DNA of 64,000 bases, taken from NCBI GenBank assembly GCA_963771045.1, contig CAVYRW010000004.1:96001-160000 (forward strand), in the 5' to 3' direction. How positions within the stretch are numbered: the stretch's first letter is position 1; each line of letters opens with the position of its first letter. The position numbers were made by a program, and so were the translations under genes. The DNA is from Waddliaceae bacterium. Lineage in GTDB: Bacteria > Chlamydiota > Chlamydiia > Chlamydiales > SLFE01. Below the pieces are notes generated by a model. It worked only from the letters and a program-made list of their open reading frames with translations. It was not told where the DNA came from and ran no database searches. This document shows, in pieces, positions 2,072 through 15,644 of the stretch.

Positions 2072-3358
2072 TTATTTCCTCACGTGATAGTTGCCTTCAA
2101 CCACCCATTTATAACTTGTCAGCTCTTTTAATCCCATAGGTCCGCGTGCATGCAGTTTTTGCGTGCTGATTGCAACTTCCGCCCCCATGCCGAACTGGCT
2201 GCCATCGGTAAACCTTGTCGATGCGTTGACATAAACGGCCGCCGAGTCGACTTCATGCACAAAATGCTTGGCCCTTTCCTTATTTTGAGTCAATATCCCA
2301 TCGCTGTGGCCGGTGCTGAAAGCGGTAATGTGGTCGATGGCAGCGCCAGCGCTTTCGACAACCTTGATTCCTAAGATAAGATCGAGCCATTCCGTACTCC
2401 AATCCTGCTTTTTGGCCTTTTGTCCCCATGATCTTTGCTTCTCATCGATGAGATCCCATGAAGCCTCATCGAACCGGAAGGAGACATTGCCTTCTTTCAA
2501 CCGTTCCAAAGCCATCGGAACAAATGCCAAAGCGATTTCTTTGTGCACAAGCAGGGTATCTAAAGAGTTGCATACGGTGGGGCGTTGAGTTTTGGCGTTG
2601 TAAATGACTTCAAGAGATCGCTTAAGATCGGCCGACTGGTCGATATAGAGGTGGCAGATGCCGATGCCGCCTGTAATGACGGGAATCCGGCTGTTTTCCC
2701 TGCAAAATTGATGGAGCTTGGCTCCGCCGCGCGGAATGATCATGTCGACAAATTCATGCAGGTGTAAAAGCTCTTTAACCAGGGATCTATCGGGACTGGC
2801 TATAAATTGAATCGCTTCGGGAGGCAGGCCCGCTTCCTTCAAGGCTTTTTGGACGACGCTAACCAAAGCCTTATTTGTCCTGATGGTTTCCGAGCCGCCG
2901 CGTAAAATAGCTGAGTTGCCTGTCTTAATGGCGAGCGAGGAGACGTCGATTGTCACATTGGGGCGCGACTCATAAATGATTCCAAGAGTGCCGATGGAAA
3001 CTCTTTGTTTGGCAATAACGAGGCCGTTTTCTAGTGTTTGCCGGTCGAAGCGTTCTCCGATCGGATCGCCAAGCGATGCGACTCGCTCGACATCGCTGCA
3101 AATTCCCGAGAGCCTCCCCTGAAGAGAGAGTCTGTCGATCATCGCAGCATTCAAACCGTTTTTTTTTCCTTCGTCGATATCTTTTTGATTTTCGGATAAA
3201 ATCAGACCTTCTTCGGCATCGATATATGAGCTCAAAGCGATAAGTGCCTCATTCTTTTGAGAAGTTGAGGCCCTCGATAGGATTTTGGAGGCTTTTTTTG
3301 CCCTCTGTCCGATTTCTTTCATAAACCACTTAAATTCAGGTTCTCTATAAAGTGGCAT
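2072..3358 (-). CDS. proA: Gamma-glutamyl phosphate reductase
   Basis: IYESRPNVT, LRGGSE, IPRGG, CNSLDTLL, NASTRFTDG, ISTQKLHARGPMG. Confidence 0.97.
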   Translation of the reverse strand: MPLYREPEFKWFMKEIGQRAKKASKILSRASTSQKNEALIALSSYIDAEEGLILSENQKDIDEGKKNGLNAAMIDRLSLQGRLSGICSDVERVASLGDPIGERFDRQTLENGLVIAKQRVSIGTLGIIYESRPNVTIDVSSLAIKTGNSAILRGGSETIRTNKALVSVVQKALKEAGLPPEAIQFIASPDRSLVKELLHLHEFVDMIIPRGGAKLHQFCRENSRIPVITGGIGICHLYIDQSADLKRSLEVIYNAKTQRPTVCNSLDTLLVHKEIALAFVPMALERLKEGNVSFRFDEASWDLIDEKQRSWGQKAKKQDWSTEWLDLILGIKVVESAGAAIDHITAFSTGHSDGILTQNKERAKHFVHEVDSAAVYVNASTRFTDGSQFGMGAEVAISTQKLHARGPMGLKELTSYKWVVEGNYHVRK

Positions 3359-3376
3359 CCTTATTGCTTACTAATA

Positions 3377-3570
3377 GTCAACTGCACCTTCCTAAAGGAA
3401 GGAGCTTGTAACTTTCGGTCGAAACCGACGCTACCACCTCAGTGTTGACATACCCGTATTAGCGACAGCAGACGCTAATAGCTGCAAGCTTCCGCAATTG
3501 TAAGGCTTTACCTTTCGCCATGGTTTAGTGCCTGAGACCGAAGCCGTTGCAAACCGATGCTTTAAAGCAA
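3377..3570 (-). ncRNA. Putative TnpB-type omegaRNA (reRNA) scaffold; the guide would be the flank 3376 to ~3357
   Basis: Pairing elements on the minus strand: TGCAACGGCTTC/GAAGCTTGCA, TATTAGCG/CGCTAATA, GTAGC..TCGGT/ACCGA..GTTAC, internal GTCAAC with terminal GTTGAC, and a terminal CCTTCC-TTTA-GGAAGG hairpin. Confidence 0.6.
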
Positions 3571-3576
3571 AAAAAA

Positions 3577-3605
3577 ATTGTAACATGTTTAATATTTAAC
3601 AACAA
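3577..3605 (-). promoter_or_regulatory. Sigma70-type promoter inside the mini-element, pointing toward the omegaRNA and proA
   Basis: Minus strand TTGTTG-N17-TACAAT. Confidence 0.5.
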
Positions 3606-3784
3606 GAGGAGCGAGGTTTCCTCCCAGACTTGAAGGGCTGGGTTTCCATCTCGTCAGTTGGATGAATAAACCGGGGAAAGGTAACTACAGGCAGCAAATT
3701 TTCTTTTTTTCAAGGCCGACTAATTATAGAAGGACACTTTGCGATACGTATGATTGGAGTAACATTCGCCGCACAACGCCTTGA

Positions 3785-5140
3785 TTAACAGAGAAGCTTC
3801 CGCCATGCCCTTAGTTGATCGGGGGTTACTCCCAATCCCGCCAGCCGGCTCTCGTCAATGTGCTCCAAATCCTCGAGGACGTCCTCTGCAAAACCATCAC
3901 GCACCGCCTCTGGCACGCGCTTGTTGGCTTCCTCTCCCACAAACCTTCTCATATTCTCACCCACGAGCCCTTGCAGGATGACCTCTCTAACCACTTCTCT
4001 TCGCTCTTGTCGATACCGTACTCGGACTTCGTCAAAACCCATTGCTTTAATGGTGGAGTCATAAGCCGCGCATGTGCGTAGGTAGGAATAAACATACAAG
4101 TCTACCAGTGGTCGCACATCCTGCATTTCATAGATGGCGATCATCGCCGACATGTAGTCTTCGACACAAACATCACTGAATGCGAGCGGCACGAGGTTAC
4201 CTCGGATAAGAGATATATTTGCAGCCAGACGAGCGGTTCGTTTGTTGACATCGGCAAAGGCCTGCAAGTAACTGATATGAACCAGCAGAAAGATACTCTG
4301 CTCATAGGGATCCTGAATATCCGCTGCCTTTGCGGCAATCTTCTCCAATTGCTGCTCGAGTCTTTTCGGGTCTTCAAAGGGAATGTAGGTTGACCCGCCG
4401 ATACGCACACCATGTTTCCGAACCTTGCCTGCCTCCGCTGGCTCAAGAAGGCCATCGGAAAGGAGATAGTGCAGCGTGCATATCACGTTGCGGCTGACTT
4501 CTAGTTTCGGCGCGTTGTCGACAAGATAACGAATGGCCTCTTTGTGATTCAGAATCATCGCCTTCTCCTCATCAAGCTTTCCCTCAGCGGTATCACCGTG
4601 AAGAAGTAAACGTTCTGTATCAAGAAGCGAGTAAGTGTTGCCCTCAAGACGTGAGGAGTTATAGGACAGGTCAATGATAAGCCTGTTGAAGATCTGATGT
4701 GCGTAGGTCCCCGCAGGATCCTGTCCATTGGCACGCTCACCCGATGCCAGCAGCTGCTGTCGCAAAGCTTCGGGTAAATAGTAGCTAGAGTTAGGCTGAT
4801 AACAGTTGAACCAGCCGTCTGCATATGCGACCGGCTGCCGCTCGAATAAGGGCTTCTTAAGCTCCTGAATAGCTTTCAAGCTGCCGGAACTAAAACAACT
4901 ACTCACCTTATCGGCGACTTCTTCCGATCGACCAGCCGCAAGGTACTTGGTCCCTCGCTTCTGGCCGATTTTTTTTACTGCCCCCTCCTTGATTAAGAGA
5001 CCTAACCATCTCCTGACCGAGCGTTCCTTAAATCCCTTGCCCAGTCGAAGCATAAGCTTAGGCAAACTGATGGGTTCAGATTCCAACCCTAGCTGCCTCA
5101 ATACGGCCATTTTATTGTCACGCAAGCTCATTACGGCCAC
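3785..5140 (-). CDS. Fic-family protein with N-terminal winged-helix DNA-binding domain
   Basis: N-terminal ERSVRRWLGLLIKEGAVKKIGQKRGTKY; YNSSRLEGNT; Fic-like motif YLQAFADVNKRTARL. Confidence 0.88.
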   Translation of the reverse strand: MAVMSLRDNKMAVLRQLGLESEPISLPKLMLRLGKGFKERSVRRWLGLLIKEGAVKKIGQKRGTKYLAAGRSEEVADKVSSCFSSGSLKAIQELKKPLFERQPVAYADGWFNCYQPNSSYYLPEALRQQLLASGERANGQDPAGTYAHQIFNRLIIDLSYNSSRLEGNTYSLLDTERLLLHGDTAEGKLDEEKAMILNHKEAIRYLVDNAPKLEVSRNVICTLHYLLSDGLLEPAEAGKVRKHGVRIGGSTYIPFEDPKRLEQQLEKIAAKAADIQDPYEQSIFLLVHISYLQAFADVNKRTARLAANISLIRGNLVPLAFSDVCVEDYMSAMIAIYEMQDVRPLVDLYVYSYLRTCAAYDSTIKAMGFDEVRVRYRQERREVVREVILQGLVGENMRRFVGEEANKRVPEAVRDGFAEDVLEDLEHIDESRLAGLGVTPDQLRAWRKLLC

Positions 5141-5224
5141 CTCAATCCTCTAATACGGCCATTTTAGCAAAGATACGGCCACTCTTCAAGTATTTTTGGC
5201 CGTATTAACCTCAAAATGGCCGTA
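5102..5224. promoter_or_regulatory. Array of six TACGGCCA boxes over the Fic gene start and promoter (putative operator)
   Basis: TACGGCCA at 5102, 5132, 5154 and 5174; inverted TGGCCGTA at 5197 and 5217. Confidence 0.7.
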
Positions 5225-5239
5225 TCTTGATGAATAAAG

Positions 5240-5367
5240 ATCGGGTAAGAGAACCACGTTGCCGTGGCTCTCTCCCCTAAGAACCGTATGTGAAAGTTTC
5301 CCTTCATACGGCTCAAGCATTTGTAAGGCTCTGTTTTAGAACCCGTACCCTATATTTTCTTTGTGAC
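5240..5367 (-). mobile_element. Group II intron 3' remnant (domains V and VI, 3' splice site)
   Basis: Minus strand GAGCCGTATGAAGGGAAACTTTCACATACGGTTC (domain V), then TTAGGGGAGAGAGCCACGGCAACGTGGTTCTCTTACCCGAT (domain VI ending in AY). Confidence 0.88.
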
Positions 5368-6148
5368 ATTCACTGTGCGGATTCGCCGCCAATGATCCTT
5401 TGGGAAGTTGAAAAATGTCAAACCTTCCCGAATATTTTTCGACTATCTTCTTCAATCGCTGCTCTGCCTCCGAGAGATCCTCTGCTTGGTATATTTTTTT
5501 TCACTGCATCACAAAGCTCCTTTTTCAAAGCTTTTGTCGGAGAATGAAATGCCGCATTTTGCGCTAGATGAAATATGCAGCGCTGCCATGGAACAGAAGG
5601 CATTACACTCCTAAGAGCTGCTCGAAGGCCAGCATGATCGTCGCTGGTAATAAGCTTCACGCCCGTCAAACCTCTTGCGCATAAATCCTCAAGCATCTTC
5701 CTCCAGTGCACTTCTGCTTCTGATAGACTGCAAGTAATACCCAGAACTTCCCGATAACCTTTCTTGTTCACCCCAACCGCTTTGAGGATTGCCAGCGAAC
5801 GGACGCTTCCTTCATATCTAACCTTTTCATACTGGGCATCCAAGTAAAGGTATTCGATTTGTCCAAGGAAACGAGTTTTAAACTTTTCAATTTCCTCATC
5901 CAAAATTTTCGAGCAGCGAGATACCTGCGTTGCTGAAATTTCTTTCCCGTAGAGCTCCTCAGCCATTTTCTTCATTTTCCGGGTCCCAACTCCTTGAATG
6001 TAGGCCTCTGCAAATACAAGCTTGAGGGCTTGTTCTGTGCGCTCTCCTTTCTCTAAACAGCTTGGATAAAACGGCTCGTCTCGAACCTGTGGCACCCGCA
6101 AATGCAACTCGCCATTTCTCGTGAGGAGCTTCTTATCCTTAAAGCCGT
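5368..6148 (-). pseudogene. IS256-family transposase fragment, truncated at both ends and frameshifted
   Basis: LRVPQVRD, YLYLDAQYEKVR, SDDHAGL, WQRCIFH; in another frame FNFPKDHWRRIRTVN. Confidence 0.88.
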
Positions 6149-7769
6149 GTATCCGTTCACGGGGTAACTCTAGGAACGGCTACCGCCTCGCGCGCTACCC
6201 CACAAAAATAATAAAAATTTTATACGGCATAAAATAAGATTTTTATTATTATTCTGGTTGTTCAAAACCACTTTATAACATGAAGCCAACCTACGAAGAA
6301 CTCTTTGAAAAGCTGAATAAAGCCTTGGAGGAAATTGAAATCCTCAAAAAGGAAAACCAGGCACTCAAGGCAAAAGTTAAGGAGCTCGAAGATAAACTCA
6401 ACACCAACTCTTCGAATAGCTCTAAGCCCCCCTCGCAAGATCCCTTCAGAGCTCAAAGAAAGAAGGAACCTACGGGGCGTAAACAGGGAGCACAAAAAGG
6501 TCATAAGGGCCACCCCCGTCAACTAGTTCCAATTAATCAGGTGCAGTCGCTGCATAACATAAAGCCGGACACTTGTCCGAACTGCCACTCCCACTCGTTT
6601 AATTCGGAGGTGGTCAGAACGGATGTACGACAAGTAGTGGAATTACCGGACGCTCCTCCGGAAGTTACTCAATACAACATTCACACCTGTCAGTGTAGCG
6701 GATGTGGTAAGCATGTAAAGGCTGATATTCCCGAAGAAGCGCGATTTGGTTTTGGTCCCCGATTAATGGGTTTCGTCACTTCTCTTTCAGGAGAGTTTAG
6801 ATTATCCAAACGTCAAGTCTGTGCTCTAATGGGCAGACTCAATATTCGGATATGTTCCGGCAGCGTGTGTAAAATCCATGTCCGAGCTAGTCAGATTTTA
6901 AAAGCACCATACGAAGAAATTAGGACACACACTCTAAATGAAGAACATATTTATGCCGATGAAACGAGTTGGAAAACGATGTCGGAAAAGAGATGGATTT
7001 GGGTCGGAAGCGGCAAGGAAACTGTGTTTTTCGCAATCAAGGCTTCACGCAGCAACAAGGCATTCCGCGAGATCTTTGGTTCTTTCAAAGGGGGTTTAAC
7101 AACCGATCGCTATAATGCCTATAATTCGCATGAAGGTCTGCGACAACTTTGCTGGTCGCATGCAGATAGAGATTTTGAAAAGATTGCAGGCAGGGATGGA
7201 TTTGATAAATGGATCGGGGAACGGTTGTTAGAGTGTAAAAAGTCGATATTCAATCTTTGGCATAGCTACAAAAACGGTGAGATTGCAAGGGACGAACTGA
7301 TCGAGAAGATCGAAATAGGCCCAAAAGAAGATTTGAAAGTCCTCCTCAAAGCTGGTGCAATTCACAAAGAATGTTGCAATAAAACGAGGTCGACTTGCGC
7401 TGATTTTTTTGGACGGTTCGAGATGTTATGGGTATTTGCCTATCATGAGAATATCGAACCGACTAACAATACAGCCGAGCAACGTCTTAGAGGCGGAGTC
7501 ATTTGGAGGAAGCTATGCTTTGGCTCACAATCAGAAGAAGGTGAGCGATTTGTCGAACGGGTGTTAACAGTTGGTATGACATTGAAGTTACGTGCTCAAA
7601 ATTCGTTCGATTATTTTACCGAATGTTTTAAAGCATACATTCATGGCGGACAAGCGCCGCCGATATTTTCAAAATAGAAAACGGTTTCCTACGACACAAA
7701 TTCACGAGGTAGTTCTCGGTTAACAAAACGTGTTAGAAGTTTACGATTCCCCCTGGGGGGGGGGTACCC
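6149..7769 (+). mobile_element. IS66-family element (single-ORF type); right inverted repeat cut by ISAs1
   Basis: Left end GTATCCGTTCACGGGGTAAC. Only ...TACCCC of the matching right end remains before the ISAs1 IR. Confidence 0.8.
6280..7677 (+). CDS. IS66-family transposase
   Basis: NSSNSSKPPSQD, GAQKGHKG, zinc finger, YADET, TDRYNAY, QLCWSH, PTNNTAEQRLR. Confidence 0.93.
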   Translation: MKPTYEELFEKLNKALEEIEILKKENQALKAKVKELEDKLNTNSSNSSKPPSQDPFRAQRKKEPTGRKQGAQKGHKGHPRQLVPINQVQSLHNIKPDTCPNCHSHSFNSEVVRTDVRQVVELPDAPPEVTQYNIHTCQCSGCGKHVKADIPEEARFGFGPRLMGFVTSLSGEFRLSKRQVCALMGRLNIRICSGSVCKIHVRASQILKAPYEEIRTHTLNEEHIYADETSWKTMSEKRWIWVGSGKETVFFAIKASRSNKAFREIFGSFKGGLTTDRYNAYNSHEGLRQLCWSHADRDFEKIAGRDGFDKWIGERLLECKKSIFNLWHSYKNGEIARDELIEKIEIGPKEDLKVLLKAGAIHKECCNKTRSTCADFFGRFEMLWVFAYHENIEPTNNTAEQRLRGGVIWRKLCFGSQSEEGERFVERVLTVGMTLKLRAQNSFDYFTECFKAYIHGGQAPPIFSK

Positions 7770-9008
7770 CAGGGAAATTGCATGAAGAAATGATTTAACA
7801 CTTTCCCGTCAAAATATTTATCATATACTGCTTATTCCAACCTGCTTTTGATCGCTTATTTTTGATACCTGCTTTTGTTTTCTTGTCTGCTTTAAGTAAA
7901 TTCAAAGTTGATCGTCGAATTATCGAAAAATTTTCCGCACCATTATCTTTTCGAACTTTGCTTCCATCTTCTCCATAAGAAACATCAAGCTGCCAATGAA
8001 GTTTGTTTTCAATCGACCAATGACTTCTTATGGCTTTTCCTATTCTTTCCGCATCGCCCTTTATACTTGATATATAATACCTTAGCTCTACTGTCTCTTT
8101 CTCTTTTACAATCCTTGTGCTCCTTACACAAGCCAGAGATGATAAACCTTTCCATTCTTCCACTTGCGGCAACCAATCAAGATTCGATGTTACCCACACC
8201 TCTCTTTTCTCAAAACGATTTCTTGATTTTTCCTCCGTTATATAGTATTCACATTCAGCTTCTTCCGGCTTAAGGTTAAGCGCTTGATTAAAAAAATGTT
8301 CCGCTTCAGCGTATAAATTTTCCTGATTCCTCTTAAGTCCGAATACGTAATCGCCTCCTTTTTCGCGGATTAGAGATGCGATTGTTTTTTGGCAGCCAGC
8401 TGCATCTATTGTCACAGTAGCTTTTTTTAAATCCAACATCTCAATCAATAATGGAAATGCTGTTATCTCATTTGATTTGGCCTCAGTGGCCAATTGCCCT
8501 AATACAAGATCATTCTCGGCTGAGAATGCGCTTACCAAATGAATAGCTTGTGTACCGCAACTTTTAGAGTTGCAAATAGTCTTTCCATCCAAAGCTATGA
8601 CACCTTCAACGGCTTTAGAAATTTTCTGGGTCCAAGAGAGGAAACATTTTTCGAATGCAACAGGGTCTACATAGCGGAAAAAACGACTAAAAGTATCATG
8701 TGAAGGAGTACCATTTTCTCCAATGCCGTACTGTTTAAGCCAGTCTTGGTTAGATTCGCCCCATAAGGCGACATCAACCCAGTCATCGGCACTACAAAGA
8801 ACCCCGAGTATGGCTATAGTTAAAATATCGAATAACGGATATTTTTGATTTCTCGATTCCCTAGGATCAGGCAGGACGGAAAAGCTAATCATGATTGATG
8901 TCTCACTTATAAGATTTTGAGATGACATTATATACCTCCATTTTAAGAAGGTAAAGTCTTCAAAATCTGGCTTGACATGTCAAATCATTTCTTCATGCAA
9001 TTTCCCTG
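7770..9008 (-). mobile_element. ISAs1-family element, copy 1, no target duplication
   Basis: IRs CAGGGAAATTGCATGAAGAAATGATTT at 7770 and its reverse complement ending at 9008. Confidence 0.92.
7795..8928 (-). CDS. ISAs1-family transposase
   Basis: PDPR, PSHDTF, ALDGKT, KSNEI, IDAAGCQ, HWSIENKLHWQLDV. Confidence 0.95.
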   Translation of the reverse strand: MSSQNLISETSIMISFSVLPDPRESRNQKYPLFDILTIAILGVLCSADDWVDVALWGESNQDWLKQYGIGENGTPSHDTFSRFFRYVDPVAFEKCFLSWTQKISKAVEGVIALDGKTICNSKSCGTQAIHLVSAFSAENDLVLGQLATEAKSNEITAFPLLIEMLDLKKATVTIDAAGCQKTIASLIREKGGDYVFGLKRNQENLYAEAEHFFNQALNLKPEEAECEYYITEEKSRNRFEKREVWVTSNLDWLPQVEEWKGLSSLACVRSTRIVKEKETVELRYYISSIKGDAERIGKAIRSHWSIENKLHWQLDVSYGEDGSKVRKDNGAENFSIIRRSTLNLLKADKKTKAGIKNKRSKAGWNKQYMINILTGKC

Positions 9009-9735
9009 TTTTTCTCACTAGCCTTGAGCATCGCTGCCTGAGCGTGTTATTAAATCTCTCAATGTAGCTTGTCTTACCTGACTCCTTTCCGACTGGGCGA
9101 TGTTGTTCCCAAGGAAGGACTTCGTAGTAGATTGAGAACTTATCCGTATAAAAGACGGCTTTTTTTTTAAGTCCTCGGGGAGCTTCGCTAATAAGGATTC
9201 CGCTGCTTGCTTATTTCTTTTTCCTACATGCATAGCTAATACCTGTCGTGTACCTGAATGAAATGCGAGCCAAAGCCATATTGGATTTTTTTTCTTTCCT
9301 ACATAGCTCCACTGTTCATCAAGCTCAAGTATAGCTACCTCAAACTCTTCTTCTCCAGTGACATCCGCATTCAAATCTTCTGGAAGATCTTCGATTATTC
9401 TGTTCATAAAATTCAAAAGCCAGGGCATGCTGACGTCAAAGATTCTACAAATACCTTCGAGAGAAACGCGTTCAAGCAATGCCTGTCTTACTCTTGATTT
9501 TGTCTCATCTGATATTATTTTTTGCTGAGGATCGATGACGAATTGCCTTCCACAAGACAAACACCTATGATTTTGCTTTCCACTGTGAATATGGCCGTTC
9601 TTTTTGATACTGGTGGATTTACAGTTAGGACAAGTGGGTGTCATTTGGGTCCTCCATTCGTTTTAGAAACAAAGGAAAACGCACAAGGAAATCAATGTCA
9701 ATTCAAAAATTGAGCATTACATGTTATGGACCACC
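9009..9735 (-). mobile_element. IS1-family element copy 1 (insA/insB), 3' end removed by ISAs1
   Basis: CPNC...CLSCGRQF zinc finger, ELDEQWSYV, A-run frameshift site; IR GGTGGTCCATAACATGTAATGCT starting at 9735 on the minus strand. Confidence 0.9.
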
Positions 9736-9877
9736 CTTTCGTGATACAGTAGAAAAAGAAAATGGGTTATCAGGAATCTTATTTCGTTAAAATTTTATTT
9801 CATCAACTTGTAGGTTGTTCAAATTAAGCTGGTTTTGTCATGAAACATTTAGAAAAAAAGTGAAAAACTTAACAGAA

Positions 9878-10867
9878 TCATGCCGCTCTTGATTTTTCGT
9901 ATTTGACTGATTCAAGAAATTCTTGATTAAGTCCCTGTCCCCAATTGAGATAAATATTTGGATTTTGATCAACTAATTGGGATAAGATGTCTATTGATTT
10001 GTCATTCAATGGGTTATACCATATCGACAAATAATTAAGATGTTCTAATTCTAACAATTCTTCTGGAAGATTCTCTATTTTATTAAAATCTAATGTCAAC
10101 CCTCTCAGGTTCTTAAGATTTTTTATCTCTTGGGGAATCTGAGTAATCGAATTATTCATGACGCTCATATATTTTAGATTTGATAATTGAAAAATTGCTG
10201 TGTTTATTTCCTTTAACTTGTTGTCTGAAACTGAAAAATCTTCCAGGTTTTGGAGGTGGCGTATTTCATTTGGAATCTCTGAAATTTGGTTATTATCGAG
10301 TCTTAATGATATTAGTTTTGCTAATTTTCCTAATTCTGGAGAAATTTTCTTAATTCTATTATCCCGAAAATCTAGAAATTCTAGATTTATCAACCTAGAA
10401 ATATCTTGTGGTATTTCTTTGATATTTAATTCATTAAGTTCTAGATTGTTTATCATCTGGATTGGTTTCATCGTAATTATCTGATAATTAGCGAATTTCT
10501 TTGTCAGAAAGTCCTTTTCTTTGATATTTACATTTTTATTTTCAAAGCAAATAACTAAACATAGGTTGTTATCTACATTTTCTGAGTGGTCTATTGGGAA
10601 GAGAATGAAATCTATGCCTATGGAGAACAAGTCGTATAAAATTTCATCAGCTTCTTGTAATATTGGCAGGTGTTCGGTCAATTGGTTATTAGGAATTTTT
10701 TCTTTATGTTTGCTTTCTGATATTTGGATTTCTTTTCTATTGGACCAAAATTCGGTTAGTTCTTCTTTGAATTCATCTACCAGATTTTCATTATTTAATA
10801 AGTTATCAATTTTATCAAATCGTCCTTCAACCATCTCATCAATAAGTTTCTTGAATATGTCATCCAT
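9878..10867 (-). CDS. Leucine-rich repeat protein
   Basis: About seven 23-aa LRRs (LxxLxLxxNxIxxIPxEIxxL) in the C-terminal half. Confidence 0.88.
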   Translation of the reverse strand: MDDIFKKLIDEMVEGRFDKIDNLLNNENLVDEFKEELTEFWSNRKEIQISESKHKEKIPNNQLTEHLPILQEADEILYDLFSIGIDFILFPIDHSENVDNNLCLVICFENKNVNIKEKDFLTKKFANYQIITMKPIQMINNLELNELNIKEIPQDISRLINLEFLDFRDNRIKKISPELGKLAKLISLRLDNNQISEIPNEIRHLQNLEDFSVSDNKLKEINTAIFQLSNLKYMSVMNNSITQIPQEIKNLKNLRGLTLDFNKIENLPEELLELEHLNYLSIWYNPLNDKSIDILSQLVDQNPNIYLNWGQGLNQEFLESVKYEKSRAA

Positions 10868-11211
10868 AAAAACACCCTATAATTATTAACAGTAATTAAA
10901 AATATTATATATAGCCTCATTATAGCATAACTCTTAAAAACTAAAAAAATAAATTTGATTATAAATAATTTAAATTTATAGGGGTTTTTTAGCTCAGAAT
11001 ATATAAATAACTAATAATCAATTAGATAAATAAATCTATATTAAAAGAGCTGACAACTCCTTTTCAATCACTTTTCCCTGATATTGCTGTTTCTATTATT
11101 GTTAATTTTGATTTGATATTAACAAAATTAACAAAATTGATTAAATAAAAAATTTTAATTATAATTGTATTATAGTCTAAATCCTTACTATCATTAGTTT
11201 GGAGGTGGTTA

Positions 11212-12354
11212 ATGCAAAATCCTAATAATATACAACCTACCTCAGCTGGCAAGCTTAGCAGGCAATTCAATAAAGCAACCAAAAATAAGTCAGTTCTTTC
11301 CAGATCCGGCCGAGCTGTCAAAACACTTTCCGGACCTGATTCTATCAATCTATTGGCCGGAGAGTCTCTTTCGTTAGGGGAAGAGTCTGTTTCTCCGACA
11401 GCCAGGCTGTTATCTTCTGATATTAAAATAGGGGTATCCACCCCCAAATCCAATGCCATAACCAGACAGGGGAAGGTTGCTTTGAGAAGAGGAGATCTCA
11501 CTTTCATTGATGAAGATTTGGATGATTCTGATCGTTTTACTTTTTTAAATCAATTGGTTGAAGTAGAAAAAGAGATAAGTAATAATGATTTACAAATAAC
11601 CAAAAATTTTCTGAATAAGGAAGCATCAAAGCTTGGGTTTGATATTAAGACGGATTTTATGGAAAAAGATATTATCGGAATTAGAATAGAAGACGATTGT
11701 ATTTATTTTACTAAAAATTACAAAAAAGCAGACCTTATAATTAGTCCAGATGGATTAATTTTAGCGAAAAATGAAACACTTAAACAACACCTTATTACTG
11801 TTCTAAATAAAAATAATTTCCATTTTTCTAATGATATAGACCCCGAGATTAGGGAACAAATACTATCAAATATTTACTATCTCAATATTATTGTTGTGGG
11901 TGAGGAGAAATGGAATCGGGTCATCAGACTTATAGAAATGTATCGAGTTGTTAAAAAGGTTTCAGAAGTTAAGGAAAAACAAAGGAAGGTTGATTTTGGA
12001 AAACAACTAAAACTTCCTCCATTAATCGATCGAGATCTCAGAGATTTATATCCTGATAGAAAAGAATTCGATTTTTCATTAATTATAAATATAATGAAAA
12101 GCAATTATTATTTTACCAATATGGCTGAAATTATATCTATAATTTTAAACCATATTCTTGAATTAAAGAAAGAGTTGAAAGAGGAAGAATTACAAGAGAG
12201 ATTAAGAGAAATTAAAAAAGAATTTCGCAATCTGCTAGATTTACGTTTTGAAATGAGTCAAAAAGATCAAAAAATTAACGATATCGTCTATGATAACACA
12301 ACGTCCTTCCTTAGATTTCTTCTTAAGAAGGACAGAAAGTTCACAATATTATAA
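11212..12354 (+). CDS. Hypothetical protein with S/T-rich N-terminus and C-terminal coiled coil
   Basis: 380-aa ORF in AT-rich DNA, with GGAGGT RBS. Confidence 0.7.
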   Translation: MQNPNNIQPTSAGKLSRQFNKATKNKSVLSRSGRAVKTLSGPDSINLLAGESLSLGEESVSPTARLLSSDIKIGVSTPKSNAITRQGKVALRRGDLTFIDEDLDDSDRFTFLNQLVEVEKEISNNDLQITKNFLNKEASKLGFDIKTDFMEKDIIGIRIEDDCIYFTKNYKKADLIISPDGLILAKNETLKQHLITVLNKNNFHFSNDIDPEIREQILSNIYYLNIIVVGEEKWNRVIRLIEMYRVVKKVSEVKEKQRKVDFGKQLKLPPLIDRDLRDLYPDRKEFDFSLIINIMKSNYYFTNMAEIISIILNHILELKKELKEEELQERLREIKKEFRNLLDLRFEMSQKDQKINDIVYDNTTSFLRFLLKKDRKFTIL

Positions 12355-12365
12355 TAATATTAAAT

Positions 12366-12911
12366 TTATTTTGCCACTATCATAATACCTTTTTCATAAG
12401 TTATTATGATATACAAATGTAGTTTTCTTCCTTTATTCGGATGGTAAAATAAATTTCCATCTCCCTTAATTCCTATAGAATTATATTGATCCTTCATCTT
12501 GTCGAATAAGGCGCTGTCCGTTACAAACATTATCGAGTTTTTATTTTTATCTGTATAAGAACAATGTGTTATTTGTCCTTTCATAAGTGATATAAGGTCT
12601 CGAACCATTTCAGGCCGTGTTTCCTTAATTTCTTTCAGATCAAATTTTTCAAATTTTTCAAATTTTTCTTTGAAATTCTTCTTTAATCTCTCGGTGTTCG
12701 TTTGATCCTTATGATGAACTGGATTTGGAACTCTGGATTGATGATAAGGAGTTGTATGTGTGAAAGTTTTACCATTGAGATTGTCCTGTCCTGGCTGGTG
12801 ATGGACGGGGATGCGAGCACCAACGCCTCGTTGAGGGCCTGGCTTGGATTGGGTGCGCTGAGGCCCCGATTTACTGTGCCCTATTTGAAAGCCTAGAATT
12901 TTCATAACCAT
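12366..12911 (-). CDS. Hypothetical protein with disordered N-terminus
   Basis: 181-aa ORF with AGGAG RBS, convergent with the previous gene. Confidence 0.6.
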   Translation of the reverse strand: MVMKILGFQIGHSKSGPQRTQSKPGPQRGVGARIPVHHQPGQDNLNGKTFTHTTPYHQSRVPNPVHHKDQTNTERLKKNFKEKFEKFEKFDLKEIKETRPEMVRDLISLMKGQITHCSYTDKNKNSIMFVTDSALFDKMKDQYNSIGIKGDGNLFYHPNKGRKLHLYIIITYEKGIMIVAK

Positions 12912-13180
12912 CTCCTTGTAAGAGCTTTATAATTTTCTGTTATCTTAGTGTATTGTTAGCATTAAGATTATGCAAAAATTATATCAAAGAAGAATTATTA
13001 TTATCAAGCATTAATTTTATACTAATCAATCTTTTGTTTTCATTATAACAAATTATTTAAATTTATGTAGTAAATAGTTTTTGTTTTAACTCTATTAAAA
13101 TGGATTGTTTATTTGTTCTCTCCCTATGGTTTAAATTCTTCTTATCAGTAATCCAATAGTTTGGATATGAAAGACTTGTG

Positions 13181-14005
13181 GGTGGTCCATAACATGTAAT
13201 GCTCAATTTTTGAATTGACATTGATTTCCTTGTGCGTTTTCCTTTGTTTCTAAAACGAATGGAGGACCCAAATGACACCCACTTGTCCTAACTGTAAATC
13301 CACCAGTATCAAAAAGAACGGCCATATTCACAGTGGAAAGCAAAATCATAGGTGTTTGTCTTGTGGAAGGCAATTCGTCATCGATCCTCAGCAAAAAATA
13401 ATATCAGATGAGACAAAATCAAGAGTAAGACAGGCATTGCTTGAACGCGTTTCTCTCGAAGGTATTTGTAGAATCTTTAACGTCAGCATGCCCTGGCTTT
13501 TGAATTTTATGAACAGAATAATCGAAGATCTTCCATAAGATTTGAATGCGGATGTCACTGGAGAAGAAGAGTTTGAGGTAGCTATACTTGAGCTTGATGA
13601 ACAGTGGATCTATGTAGGAAAGAAAAAAAATCCAATATGGCTTTGGCTCGCATTTCATTCAGGTACACGACAGGTATTAGCTATGCATGTAGGAAAAAGA
13701 AATAAGCAAGCAGCAGAATCCTTATTAGCGAAGCTCCCCGAGGACTTAAAAAAAAGCCGTCTTTTATACGGATAAGTTCTCAATCTACTACGAAGTCCTT
13801 CCTTGGGAACAACATCGCCCAGTCGGAAAGGAGTCAGGTAAGACAAGCTACATTGAGAGATTTAATAACACGCTCAGGCAGCGATGCTCAAGGCTAGTGA
13901 GAAAAACCCTTTCATTTTCAAAGAAAATTGAGAACCATATTGGCATGATAAAATATTTTATATGTGACTATAACCAGAGAAAAGCATTACAAGTTTAGGA
14001 CTACC
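13181..14005 (+). mobile_element. IS1-family element copy 2, full length, with an in-frame stop at 13536-13538
   Basis: IRL GGTGGTCCATAACATGTAATGCT and IRR AGCATTACAAGTTTAGGACTACC. Near-identical to copy 1 except GAA to TAA. Confidence 0.9.
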
Positions 14006-14055
14006 CTAAATCGCACCAAATTTGGTACAATTATATTAGAAAGGAAAACTTATTT

Positions 14056-14122
14056 ATGAATGGCTCCAGGCCACCGAAAAAGATTGTTTCAGTTGTTTTC
14101 TACCGAGAAGAGACTGGTTCTG
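14056..14122 (+). pseudogene. 5' stub of a probable RelE/Gp49-like toxin gene, truncated by IS3
   Basis: AAGGA RBS then MNGSRPPKKIVSVVFYREETGS, resembling the 'V.FYrtexG.ePv' N-terminus of Gp49/RelE-like proteins. Confidence 0.4.
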
Positions 14123-15489
14123 TGTAATGGTCCCCAAAATTAGGACCACATGCTAAGCTAATATCCTCCTGAAAATCGGAGGATAAAAATGACCCGTAAA
14201 CGTAGGAAATTCTCAGCTGAGTTCAAGCTCAAAGCTGTAACTGAAATCTTGAAAGGAGAAAAGACCGCTTCCCAATTAGCAGGCGAGCTTGGTGTTCACC
14301 CCGTGGTTCTATCCGAGTGGAAAAAGCACTTTCTGGAGGTAGGACCTCAAATCTTCGAAAAACCTAAAAAGGCATCAAAGGTAAATCAGGAAGAGAAAGA
14401 AAAGGCCGAATTGTTCGAGCAGATCGGTCGACTCAAGATGGAAAACGAATGGCTTAAAAAAAATTGAGGACCTGGATTTAAATGACCGACGAGCCCTCAT
14501 TGAACCATCTCATCCACACTTTTCTCAGAGAAAACAGTGTGAAATTCTCTCTTTGCACCGCTCTGGATTATATTATCAACCGGCAGAACCGGGTGAGGAC
14601 ACTCTCCGCCTCATGCGTGCAATCGATGAAGAATATCTTGAAAATCCTCACTATGGGAGGAGGCAAATGGGTGAAATAATGAGGGCTCGGGGGTTTGATG
14701 TGGGCAATAAGAAGATCAGATCACTGATGCGTCTGGTGGGATTAGAAGCTATTTACCCCAAACAAAACCTGAGCAAACCCAACAAAGAGCATAAAAAATA
14801 TCCCTATTTGCTCCGTGGATTGAAAATTGACCGACCCGATCAAACCTGGGCAGGAGATATCACCTATATCCCACTTCTGCACGGCTTTGGTTACCTTTTC
14901 GCGATCATTGACTGGTTTAGTCGTTATGTGATCGAGTGGGAGTTGTCCAATCTACTAGATAGCAGTTTTTGTGTTGAAGCACTTGATAGAGGTCTTGTCG
15001 ATACAAGACCCGAGATTTTCAACACAGATCAAGGGGTGCAATTCACAAGTTGCTGCTTTGTCGGCAGACTTGAAGAGAATGAGGTAAAAGTGAGCATGGA
15101 CGGAAAAGGGCGGGCTCTTGACAATGTATTCATTGAAAGGCTCTGGAGAAGCGTAAAGTATGAGAACGTTTATCCAAGAGGATATGAGACTCTGAAAGAA
15201 GTCCGTCAGGGACTGAAAGGCTATTTCAAGTACTACAATGAGAGAAGGCCTCATCAAGGGCTTGATTATCGAACTCCAGCTGAGGTATATTTTGCGAAGT
15301 AGTATCCAAAGCGCCGGCGCGCGCTCCCCCCATGGGGGGAGCAAGGCTTGTGCCTTCGGATATGGAAGCGAACTAGTACTCTGAGGTTAGAGAAGAAAAC
15401 TGTGAAATACAGAAAAAGGAACTTTTAACAACCAGAGGATGTTAGCTTAAGTTTTGGTGATTTTGGTCCTAAGGAAGGGACCCACCTCA
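14123..15489 (+). mobile_element. IS3-family element
   Basis: TG...CA ends with imperfect IRs TGTAATGGTCCCCAAAATTAGGACCA and TGGTCCTAAGGAAGGGACCCACCTCA. Confidence 0.88.
14189..15302 (+). CDS. IS3 transposase OrfA (14189..14467) and OrfB, joined by a -1 frameshift
   Basis: RRKFSAEFK HTH; A8 slippery run near 14456-14463; DDE motifs WAGDITY, NTDQG, DNVFIERLWRSVKYE. Confidence 0.92.
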
Positions 15490-15644
15490 TATATTCTTTC
15501 TCGAATGCCCCTTTAATTTAATAAAATTAAATAGAGAATAGGCTGCTCACGTGGGCACGCGCATTCTATTCCCTTAAGTTTACAGCATTGGATCCTCCCC
15601 GAATGCTTACATATTCTTTATTTAGAACTTGATGTGGATTTCAT

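Follow-up and report, generated by a model that had tools for sequence, protein, structure and literature searches.

A protein-less IS200/IS605 element with a TnpB-type omegaRNA scaffold between proB and proA of a Waddliaceae bacterium, probably idle in its present genome

The window analyzed here is a stretch of 64,000 nucleotides from a Waddliaceae bacterium (genome G000, contig C4, positions 96001-160000), the assembly of which comprises 2.57 Mb in 5 contigs and is 90.6% complete. On the minus strand of the window, between proA, which ends at 2072, and a gene of 451 aa (5140-3785), lies an element of 285 nt (3661-3377) without a long ORF (Table 1). The element is found inside an island that parts proA from proB (16745-15645) and is flanked by a 14-nt near-direct repeat (15650-15637 and 3324-3311); proA directly follows proB in genomes G001 and G002. 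The island carries IS256, IS66, ISAs1, IS1, and IS3 transposases, and the empty site of the element was not found in relatives, as the island is absent from G001 and G002. There is no protein gene between the ends of the element: its sole frame counts 51 codons and makes no sense as TnpB, and a short zinc-finger remnant is present besides. A search of 2800-4300 against Rfam returned a single chance match, located outside the element. A first-pass annotation of the window had described a protein-less IS200/IS605 element with a TnpB-type omegaRNA on the minus strand and a promoter facing the scaffold; class, strand, and promoter orientation all hold, and every letter that it quoted is present in the window.

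Table 1 Features of the element and its surroundings (positions in the window).
Feature	Position	Strand	Basis or remarks
TTCAT, target motif of TnpA and predicted TAM of TnpB	3662..3666	-	Host sequence outside the element; TTCAT before 60/70 distinct left ends
Left end	3606..3661	-	DNA guide GAAA 3646-3643; subterminal hairpin ~3646-3620; resembles the left ends seen in tnpB elements L003, L004
Predicted promoter	3577..3605	-	-35 3605-3600, 17-nt spacer, -10 3582-3577; predicted transcription start near 3570
Leader, ~75 nt	3500..3576	-	73/78 identical to G102 over 3577-3500
tnpB zinc-finger codon remnant (C-G-S)	3487..3499	-	Alignment with parents G128, G247
TnpB-type omegaRNA core	3377..3486	-	Covariance model R1, 40.9 bits
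Core hairpin, intact	3480-3457	-	R1 alignment
Pseudoknot-holding stem, 2/5 pairs broken	3456-3439	-	R1 alignment
Pseudoknot loop hexamer	3449-3444	-	Complementary to terminal 3382-3377
Core hairpin	3435-3408	-	Followed by the right-end hairpin
Right end	3377..3408	-	DNA guide CAAG 3408-3405; one T-T mismatch in the hairpin; ends in TTGAC
Predicted guide (flanking island DNA)	3357..3376	-	Sole match is the empty site of the element
proA	2072..3322	-	Homologous start 3322, 55 nt past the right end; G001, G002 start at matching codon
12.3-kb island between proB and proA, contains the element	3325..15636	.	G001 has proB-proA adjacent

Both ends of the element carry subterminal hairpins with DNA guides that match the adjoining motifs, including the left-end hairpin already noted in the first-pass annotation. 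By the TnpA pairing rule, DNA guides pair with the cleavage motifs; here, GAAA fits TCAT and CAAG fits TGAC, and family members with an AAAG guide have TTAC ends. A left-end profile scored 48.8 bits at the element, its sole strong match in G000. Among distinct loci, de-duplicated on their flanks and including IscB elements and minis (protein-less short elements) that share this end, the five bases before the left end are TTCAT at 60 of 70, another base followed by TCAT at 7, and a sequence without TCAT at 3. TTTAT (3670-3666), previously proposed as target and TAM, is refuted by these counts, as it occurs at the corresponding offset at 2 of 67 loci; it seems to be tolerated on rare occasions, since one copy in genome G102 sits after TTTAT. 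The TTCAT motif is host DNA: on the opposite strand, 44 of 63 such motifs begin a reading frame with a length of ≥100 codons, as against 387 of 2000 background sites. The left-end counts, the motif's place in host DNA, and the fit of the DNA guides thus identify TTCAT (3666-3662) as the target and predicted TAM and set the start of the element at 3661 rather than at 3665.

G000 holds one further copy (C4:175940-176099), which matches window positions 3523-3377 by BLASTN. This second copy is truncated at its 5' side, with neither left end nor promoter, and differs from the window by 3 substitutions in 147 nt and by 13 extra nucleotides. As it shares the terminal TTGAC but continues into a different flank, the right boundary falls at 3377, where it had originally been placed; three copies in G102 stop at the equivalent base, again with flanks that all differ. 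Insertion of the family 3' of a fixed motif at varied sites is evident from the 60 of 70 loci after TTCAT and from the differing flanks of these four copies. The many dispersed copies once envisaged as a guide library are not seen in the assembly of G000, where there are two matches only, one of them lacking left end and promoter. Of the relatives that the first-pass annotation proposed to look for, one truncated copy was found in G000 and others elsewhere, but no tnpB-bearing parent in G000. The six intact tnpA genes of this genome all belong to another IS605 family. Taken as a whole, the element is almost certainly a protein-less, PATE-like derivative of a TnpB family of IS200/IS605.

Candidate parents were found elsewhere in the order. 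Of 400 genomes of the order, 35 contain relatives of the parent tnpB at E ≤ 1e-30; G000 and the five other genomes of its family contain none at this threshold. In G247 (L025), a 1250-nt element consists of a left end, a single ORF of 378 aa, and a right end; the protein scores 174 bits with the NCBIfam model guided_TnpB (cut-off 100), and three RuvC acidic motifs can be seen by eye. The window element resembles the tnpB-only (IS1341-type) parents of G247 (L076), G199, G173, and G128 in left end, TTCAT, promoter position, 3' RNA architecture, and a right-end type with terminal TTGAC, but is ~960 nt shorter (285 versus ~1250 nt). An exact or closer parent with the mini's own hairpin was not found: a 20-nt interior pattern occurs only in the G102 minis among genome contigs, and not in metagenome contigs. 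Literature searches returned no publication on this mini or its parent family, although supplements may list such elements.

The promoter boxes read in the first-pass annotation, TTGTTG and TACAAT with 17 nt between them, are present, and the G102 minis retain the -10 hexamer and the 17-nt spacing even though identity over the stretch is only 16/28. On direct reading, only 3 of 6 bases of the -35 box match the consensus, and a consensus promoter scan called 0 sites at this position. The start codon of the parents lies ~100 nt from the left end, and in several parents a -10-like hexamer is often found ~7 nt before the tnpB start. Since the parents place this hexamer just before tnpB, the predicted promoter of the window would be an inherited tnpB promoter. 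It faces proA, the start of which lies 55 nt past the right end, and no terminator-like site was found in 3200-3900; as proB and proA are joined in G001 and G002, it could be speculated that the copy is kept for read-through into proA-proC, cut off from proB by the island. Such a role is compatible with the interpretation preferred below, yet distinctly unlikely, as the promoter is a family feature kept in G102 at unrelated sites and the co-oriented gene at 5140-3785 could supply transcription too.

The leader downstream of the promoter does not resemble the parents' coding DNA significantly (501 of 1000 shuffles as good), and its likeness to the parent protein is marginal (18 of 1000 shuffles for the window, 110 of 1000 for G102). 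A MAFFT alignment had looked collinear for the leader, but the shuffles disagree, and the idea that the entire interior is decayed tnpB, supported only from 3499 downward, was abandoned. A stable leader hairpin was likewise rejected, since shuffles fold equally well (z = +0.64).

The remainder of the interior is homologous to the 3' end of tnpB together with the right end, on the strand of the lost tnpB. The last ~153 nt of 20 parents align and share a structure of five helices, one of them a pseudoknot formed by the hexamer of a loop and the six terminal bases. In these 3' ends, 93.4% of cells are paired, and both partners have changed in 22 of 37 pairs, a level reached by 0 of 500 shuffles and compared with 36-43% in slid controls. 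The pseudoknot covaries as well, with A-U in 15 and C-G in 5 parents in step with a TTTAC or TTGAC end. The covariance model R1 was built from the tnpB 3' ends of these 20 parents only, over the last 107 positions, omitting L097, L101, L094, L003, the short-type parents L100 and L102-L104, and parents cut before their right end. R1 matches the window at 3486-3377 on the minus strand (40.9 bits, E ~5e-8), the second G000 copy at 42.3 bits, the G102 minis at 57-63 bits, and parent-type ends of the closest clade outside the model at 71-90 bits. The interior had been called multi-stem on inspection; minus-strand folding alone does not show this (z = -1.24), but the covariation in relatives supports the stems. 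The related copies, the tnpB-bearing parent family, and the covarying stems, the absence of which would have spoken against the first-pass annotation, were thus all found within the order.

A contrary possibility is a stand-alone IscB-type (HEARO) omegaRNA on the plus strand, running inward from 3377. IscB elements of the order share the same ends (L016), and the plus strand folds somewhat better than its shuffles (z = -2.76). Yet, neither the window nor a G102 copy (L067) matches the HEARO model RF02033, which scores four positive controls (L016, L159, L168, and L187) at 100-147 bits; the interior aligns with tnpB 3' ends, and R1 reaches 30.4 bits on IscB elements through the right end alone. 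The IscB-type family PF14239 had no match in G000, a result to be read with the finding that the same search had no match in its controls either. The IscB-type alternative, disfavored from the outset, was rejected on the HEARO test and is exceedingly improbable; on these sequence comparisons, we regard the TnpB-type reading of the minus strand as settled.

Contrary to the earlier statement that no recognizable protein remnant is present, a trace of tnpB survives just 5' of the core. The letters 3496-3487, with 13 more nucleotides in the second copy and in G102, stem from the zinc-finger codons C-G-S-x-Q-H of tnpB: G102 and the second copy read C-G-S-S-Q-H where the parent has C-G-S-Y-Q-H, and 21 of 26 nucleotides of the G102 remnant are identical to the parent. 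In a protein-profile test, 1 of 1000 shuffles beat the G102 sequence and 63 of 1000 beat the window interior. The codons around the RuvC-III aspartate have gone with a 23-nt deletion, to which the window adds the loss of the further 13 nt. Decayed tnpB coding sequence in the interior had been named as grounds for giving up the RNA interpretation; part of it is indeed there, but the interpretation is unharmed, since the reRNA of TnpB itself comes from the 3' end of tnpB (PMC8612924).

The history of the element is best seen in G102, a genome of another family, which carries three near-identical full copies of the same mini at different sites, ~80% identical to the window. By part, identity to G102 is 47/56 in the left end, 16/28 in the promoter, 73/78 in the leader, 12/13 in the linker, 66/74 in the core, and 25/35 in the right end. 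The interior (151/165) is more conserved than the ends (72/91; Fisher p 0.006) and than the promoter region (16/28; p 2e-5), a test that rests on one sequence pair. The window element appears to belong to a lineage and not to be a fresh deletion, and since its interior is better conserved than its ends and copies exist in another family, the lineage likely functions as a stand-alone omegaRNA gene. The right end of the G102 copies is 35/35 identical to that of parent G128, and so the higher interior identity could arise in part by end swapping with co-resident parents. Likewise, the scaffold may have been retained simply because it adjoins the right end. Minis of the same plan occur in G016, G060, G014, G007, G124, and G125. 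Thirty loci picked by left end alone comprised 14 with tnpB, 6 iscB-like (by eye, one confirmed), 5 with a left end only or cut short, and 5 complete short elements. All five of the latter carry an omegaRNA, 3 of the TnpB type and 2 of the HEARO type; L159, being of the HEARO type, is excluded from the count of TnpB-type minis.

Against this background, the element might be a plain MITE or PATE relic, in which only the ends mattered and promoter and core were passengers that never loaded TnpB in trans. The two G000 copies, at two sites, share a damaged stem although no more than 3 substitutions in 147 nt set them apart, indicating that the damage did not block spread; the cognate tnpB was not found in G000, and a ~105-nt element after TTCAT in the same genome, a weak match, has no scaffold. 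Against the relic stands an interior that is better conserved than the ends across two families. Both strands of the hairpin at 3480-3457 have diverged from the parents, but it still pairs in full; an omegaRNA is kept in all 5 complete short elements picked by left end alone; and the minis of a sister lineage (below) have inserted new hairpins yet retain the pseudoknot. We consider the relic unlikely and favor, with a probability of roughly 0.7, the following reading: the element arose by deletion from a tnpB-only family that targets TTCAT and, now without a gene, has kept both ends, a predicted promoter, and a TnpB-type scaffold, in a lineage that likely spreads by borrowing TnpA and TnpB, and the present copy is damaged and likely idle. 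That the lineage functions in trans is, as a separate matter, somewhat probable.

The state of the present copy is a different question. In both G000 copies, 2 of 5 pairs are broken in the stem that presents the pseudoknot, as is 1 pair of the right-end hairpin, all of which are kept in G102. In constrained folding, the damaged stem pairs with a probability of 0.33 in the window and of 1.0 in G102; this is a weak test, as the intact parent L089 also gives 0.03. G000 has 8 TnpB-domain loci, namely six intact tnpA/tnpB elements located after TGAA and two interrupted loci of other families, and by best tblastn match its TnpBs share 22-28% identity with the parent family. No compatible TnpB was found in the 90.6% of the genome that is assembled, and the cognate tnpB may sit in the remainder. 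The first-pass annotation had this copy loading TnpB in trans; in G000, its RNA would have to guide an unassembled cognate or a resident IS605 TnpB. The promoter boxes, the pseudoknot hexamer, and 3 of 4 core hairpins are essentially intact, and the incomplete assembly and the six intact tnpA/tnpB elements leave room for such an enzyme. Yet, the resident TnpBs are distant and sit after TGAA rather than TTCAT, and the RNA ends of the resident IS605 elements do not match R1 among the 150 of 673 candidates scored. On the same 150 of 673 candidates, R1 has at least five matches in G000, and apart from the two minis these are weak; the family has but a single strong left end in this genome, and the stem is damaged. 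Activity of this copy in G000, unsupported in view of the lacking tnpB and the damaged scaffold, is very unlikely. As no matching tnpB was found and the stem is damaged, the copy is probably orphaned and idle in G000.

The predicted guide following the right end would be directed at the empty site of the element, as had been proposed, since no better TTCAT-adjacent match exists in G000: among 9626 sites scanned, the best other site has 5 mismatches in 16 nt, and for neither G000 copy does a guide have an off-site target better than this. The guide does not cover the ribosome binding site and start of proA, as was once thought, but consists of island DNA, with the homologous start of proA at 3322. 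An ATG further upstream, at 3358, is not conserved and, on direct reading, leaves no spacing from the supposed ribosome site.

Omega-RNA-bearing PATEs and stand-alone omegaRNAs are already published, and the window element behaves as one of them, with the features of PATEs that were compared but with no compatible effector found in its genome. Protein-less PATE-like elements occur in Geobacillus stearothermophilus, and according to Meers et al. (10.1101/2023.03.14.532601), an omegaRNA dependent on TnpB supplied in trans is a frequent component of PATEs. Common to these PATEs and the window element are ends shared with tnpB or iscB elements, no protein gene, an omegaRNA needing TnpB in trans, and, as would follow for the window, mobilization by TnpA in trans. 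The TTCAT of Meers et al. (10.1101/2023.03.14.532601), however, adjoins ISGst5, an IscB element, whereas here it belongs to a TnpB family. The window element also differs in having no cognate TnpB found in its genome, a damaged scaffold, and a leader without significant likeness to parent coding DNA. Stand-alone omegaRNAs of OMEGA systems exist and work in trans (PMC10691335); like the window element, they are mobilized omegaRNA loci without effector or transposase, but their genomes hold an effector that fits them and their action in trans has been demonstrated, whereas for the window element no such effector was found and function in trans is only predicted. The reRNA of ISDra2 TnpB comprises the tnpB 3' end and the right end, with ~16 nt of flank as guide and a TAM equal to the TnpA target (PMC8612924), and TnpB trims the 5' end of its own RNA (PMC10278001). 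These two systems are protein-coding and act in cis, and the TAM of ISDra2 is TTGAT, while that of the window family is predicted only.

For the lineage as a whole, the conserved ends and the copies at varied sites suggest that TnpA made elsewhere would excise the element as single-stranded DNA and insert it 3' of TTCAT. The inherited promoter is predicted to yield an RNA of ~193 nt plus flank, starting near 3570. By analogy to TnpBs described elsewhere, the nuclease of the parent family would trim the 5' leader and bind the ~110-nt core; guided by the sequence from 3376 onward, it may then cut the donor joint left beside TTCAT after excision, and repair from the sister chromosome would restore the element. 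In G000, the last two steps would lack their cognate enzyme, and the stem holding the pseudoknot would be weakened. A bolder and rather unlikely extension is that protein-less TnpB minis of the order are long-lived parasites of parasites, RNA genes released from coding constraints and under their own selection, in which rebuilt stems and new leaders (75 nt in the window, a three-way junction in the sister lineage) help to capture TnpB from full-length elements, and which compete with or dampen the parent transposon.

As a single locus, the element carries little weight, since it is of a known kind and this copy looks orphaned. Within the order, a single group of ends is shared by tnpB genes, iscB genes, and minis of both the TnpB and the HEARO type, which makes it a test set for trans function and selection of stand-alone TnpB omegaRNAs. 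It also points to a compact TnpB family (~370 aa), for which TTCAT is the predicted TAM and the ~110-nt scaffold is well defined.

Finally, some observations concern the other minis. The cognate tnpB was not found in G102, G337, or G353, and a parent-type right end lies at a contig end of G102. No Rfam family of self-cleaving ribozymes matched the minis at 13 loci at E up to 1. By eye, the leader of the window had hinted at a common origin with that of the sister lineage; this was rejected, as a sequence profile lent it no support and R2, the covariance model of the sister-lineage leader, run with filters off, had no match at the leader of the window or of G102. The sister lineage itself occurs in G125, G337, G353, G007, and G124, and its leader RNA is a covarying three-way junction with no Rfam match. 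In G125, one full tnpB is found together with four minis of this lineage.

A sister lineage of protein-less minis (~300–400 nt), distinct from the lineage of the window's own mini, carries a conserved leader of ~90 nt followed by a remodelled omegaRNA. The leader folds as a three-way junction plus a hairpin, with 91.3% pairing and two-sided changes at 10 of 21 pairs. It had no match in Rfam, and the tnpB parents lack it. In metagenomes, all five matches of the leader motif lay directly behind a left end, and none was accompanied by a tnpB match; four of these minis extend to the right end, two of the four being identical. In a model scan, 3 of the 150 genomes contained the lineage. Ends of the type seen in the window's family also occur on three protein-less minis with an IscB-type omegaRNA (HEARO), scoring 100–138 bits against Rfam.

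Many insertions of the window's element family, among them L004, L012, L014, L015, L019, L020 and L021, coincide with the apparent start codon of an oppositely oriented host gene. This placement arises because the target motif TTCAT reads ATGAA on the complementary strand, and the host gene stays whole after such an insertion. In G102, the genome of another family with three related minis, a parent-type right end (L153) at the end of contig C38 and two left ends (L071, L072) at contig ends suggest a full-length tnpB element collapsed in the assembly.

The window's own genome (G000) holds further mobile elements. The two copies of a second mini family are 95% identical, and its 3' part resembles the end of an interrupted tnpB element at 52 kb of contig C4. 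A ~105-nt single-copy element, built of three hairpins with a terminal GTTGAC, lacks an omegaRNA core and represents a PATE-like element in minimal form. The second, truncated copy of the window's mini (L011) overlaps a 308-codon ORF and supplies its final codons and stop. Six intact IS605 elements, nearly identical to one another, are located after TGAA, encode a 133-aa TnpA and a ~347-aa TnpB, and have a very short RNA end.

Features and loci, with coordinates where given
Feature	Genome or contig	Position or loci	Remark
Sister-lineage minis	G125	L142–L144, L197, L200–L202	
Sister-lineage minis	G337; G353; G007; G124	L184; L185; L148; L154	
Sister-lineage minis	metagenomes	L192–L196	
HEARO minis	G005; G360; G011	L159; L168; L187	Rfam
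Second mini family, L110	G000:C4	1193850-1194264	apparently gene-less
Second mini family, other copy	G000:C4	2231377-2231692	apparently gene-less
PATE-like element	G000:C4	1527260-1527375	preceded by TTCAT
L011	G000:C4	175940-176099	
308-codon ORF	G000:C4	175029-175955	
Intact IS605 elements	G000:C4	near 468k, 785k, 1064k, 1236k, 1669k, 2236k	
proB–proA island	window	3325-15636	
Leucine-rich-repeat protein	window, island	10867-9878	effector-like matches under cut-off
ORF	window, island	11212-12354	no assigned identity
ORF	window, island	12911-12366	no assigned identity

Finally, proB and proA are separated by a 12.3-kb island, at a 14-nt near-repeat. One island protein, which we take to be Fic-like from its motif, had no match in NCBIfam, and no integrase was among the listed ORFs; the transposases of the island belong to IS256, IS66, ISAs1, IS1 and IS3.
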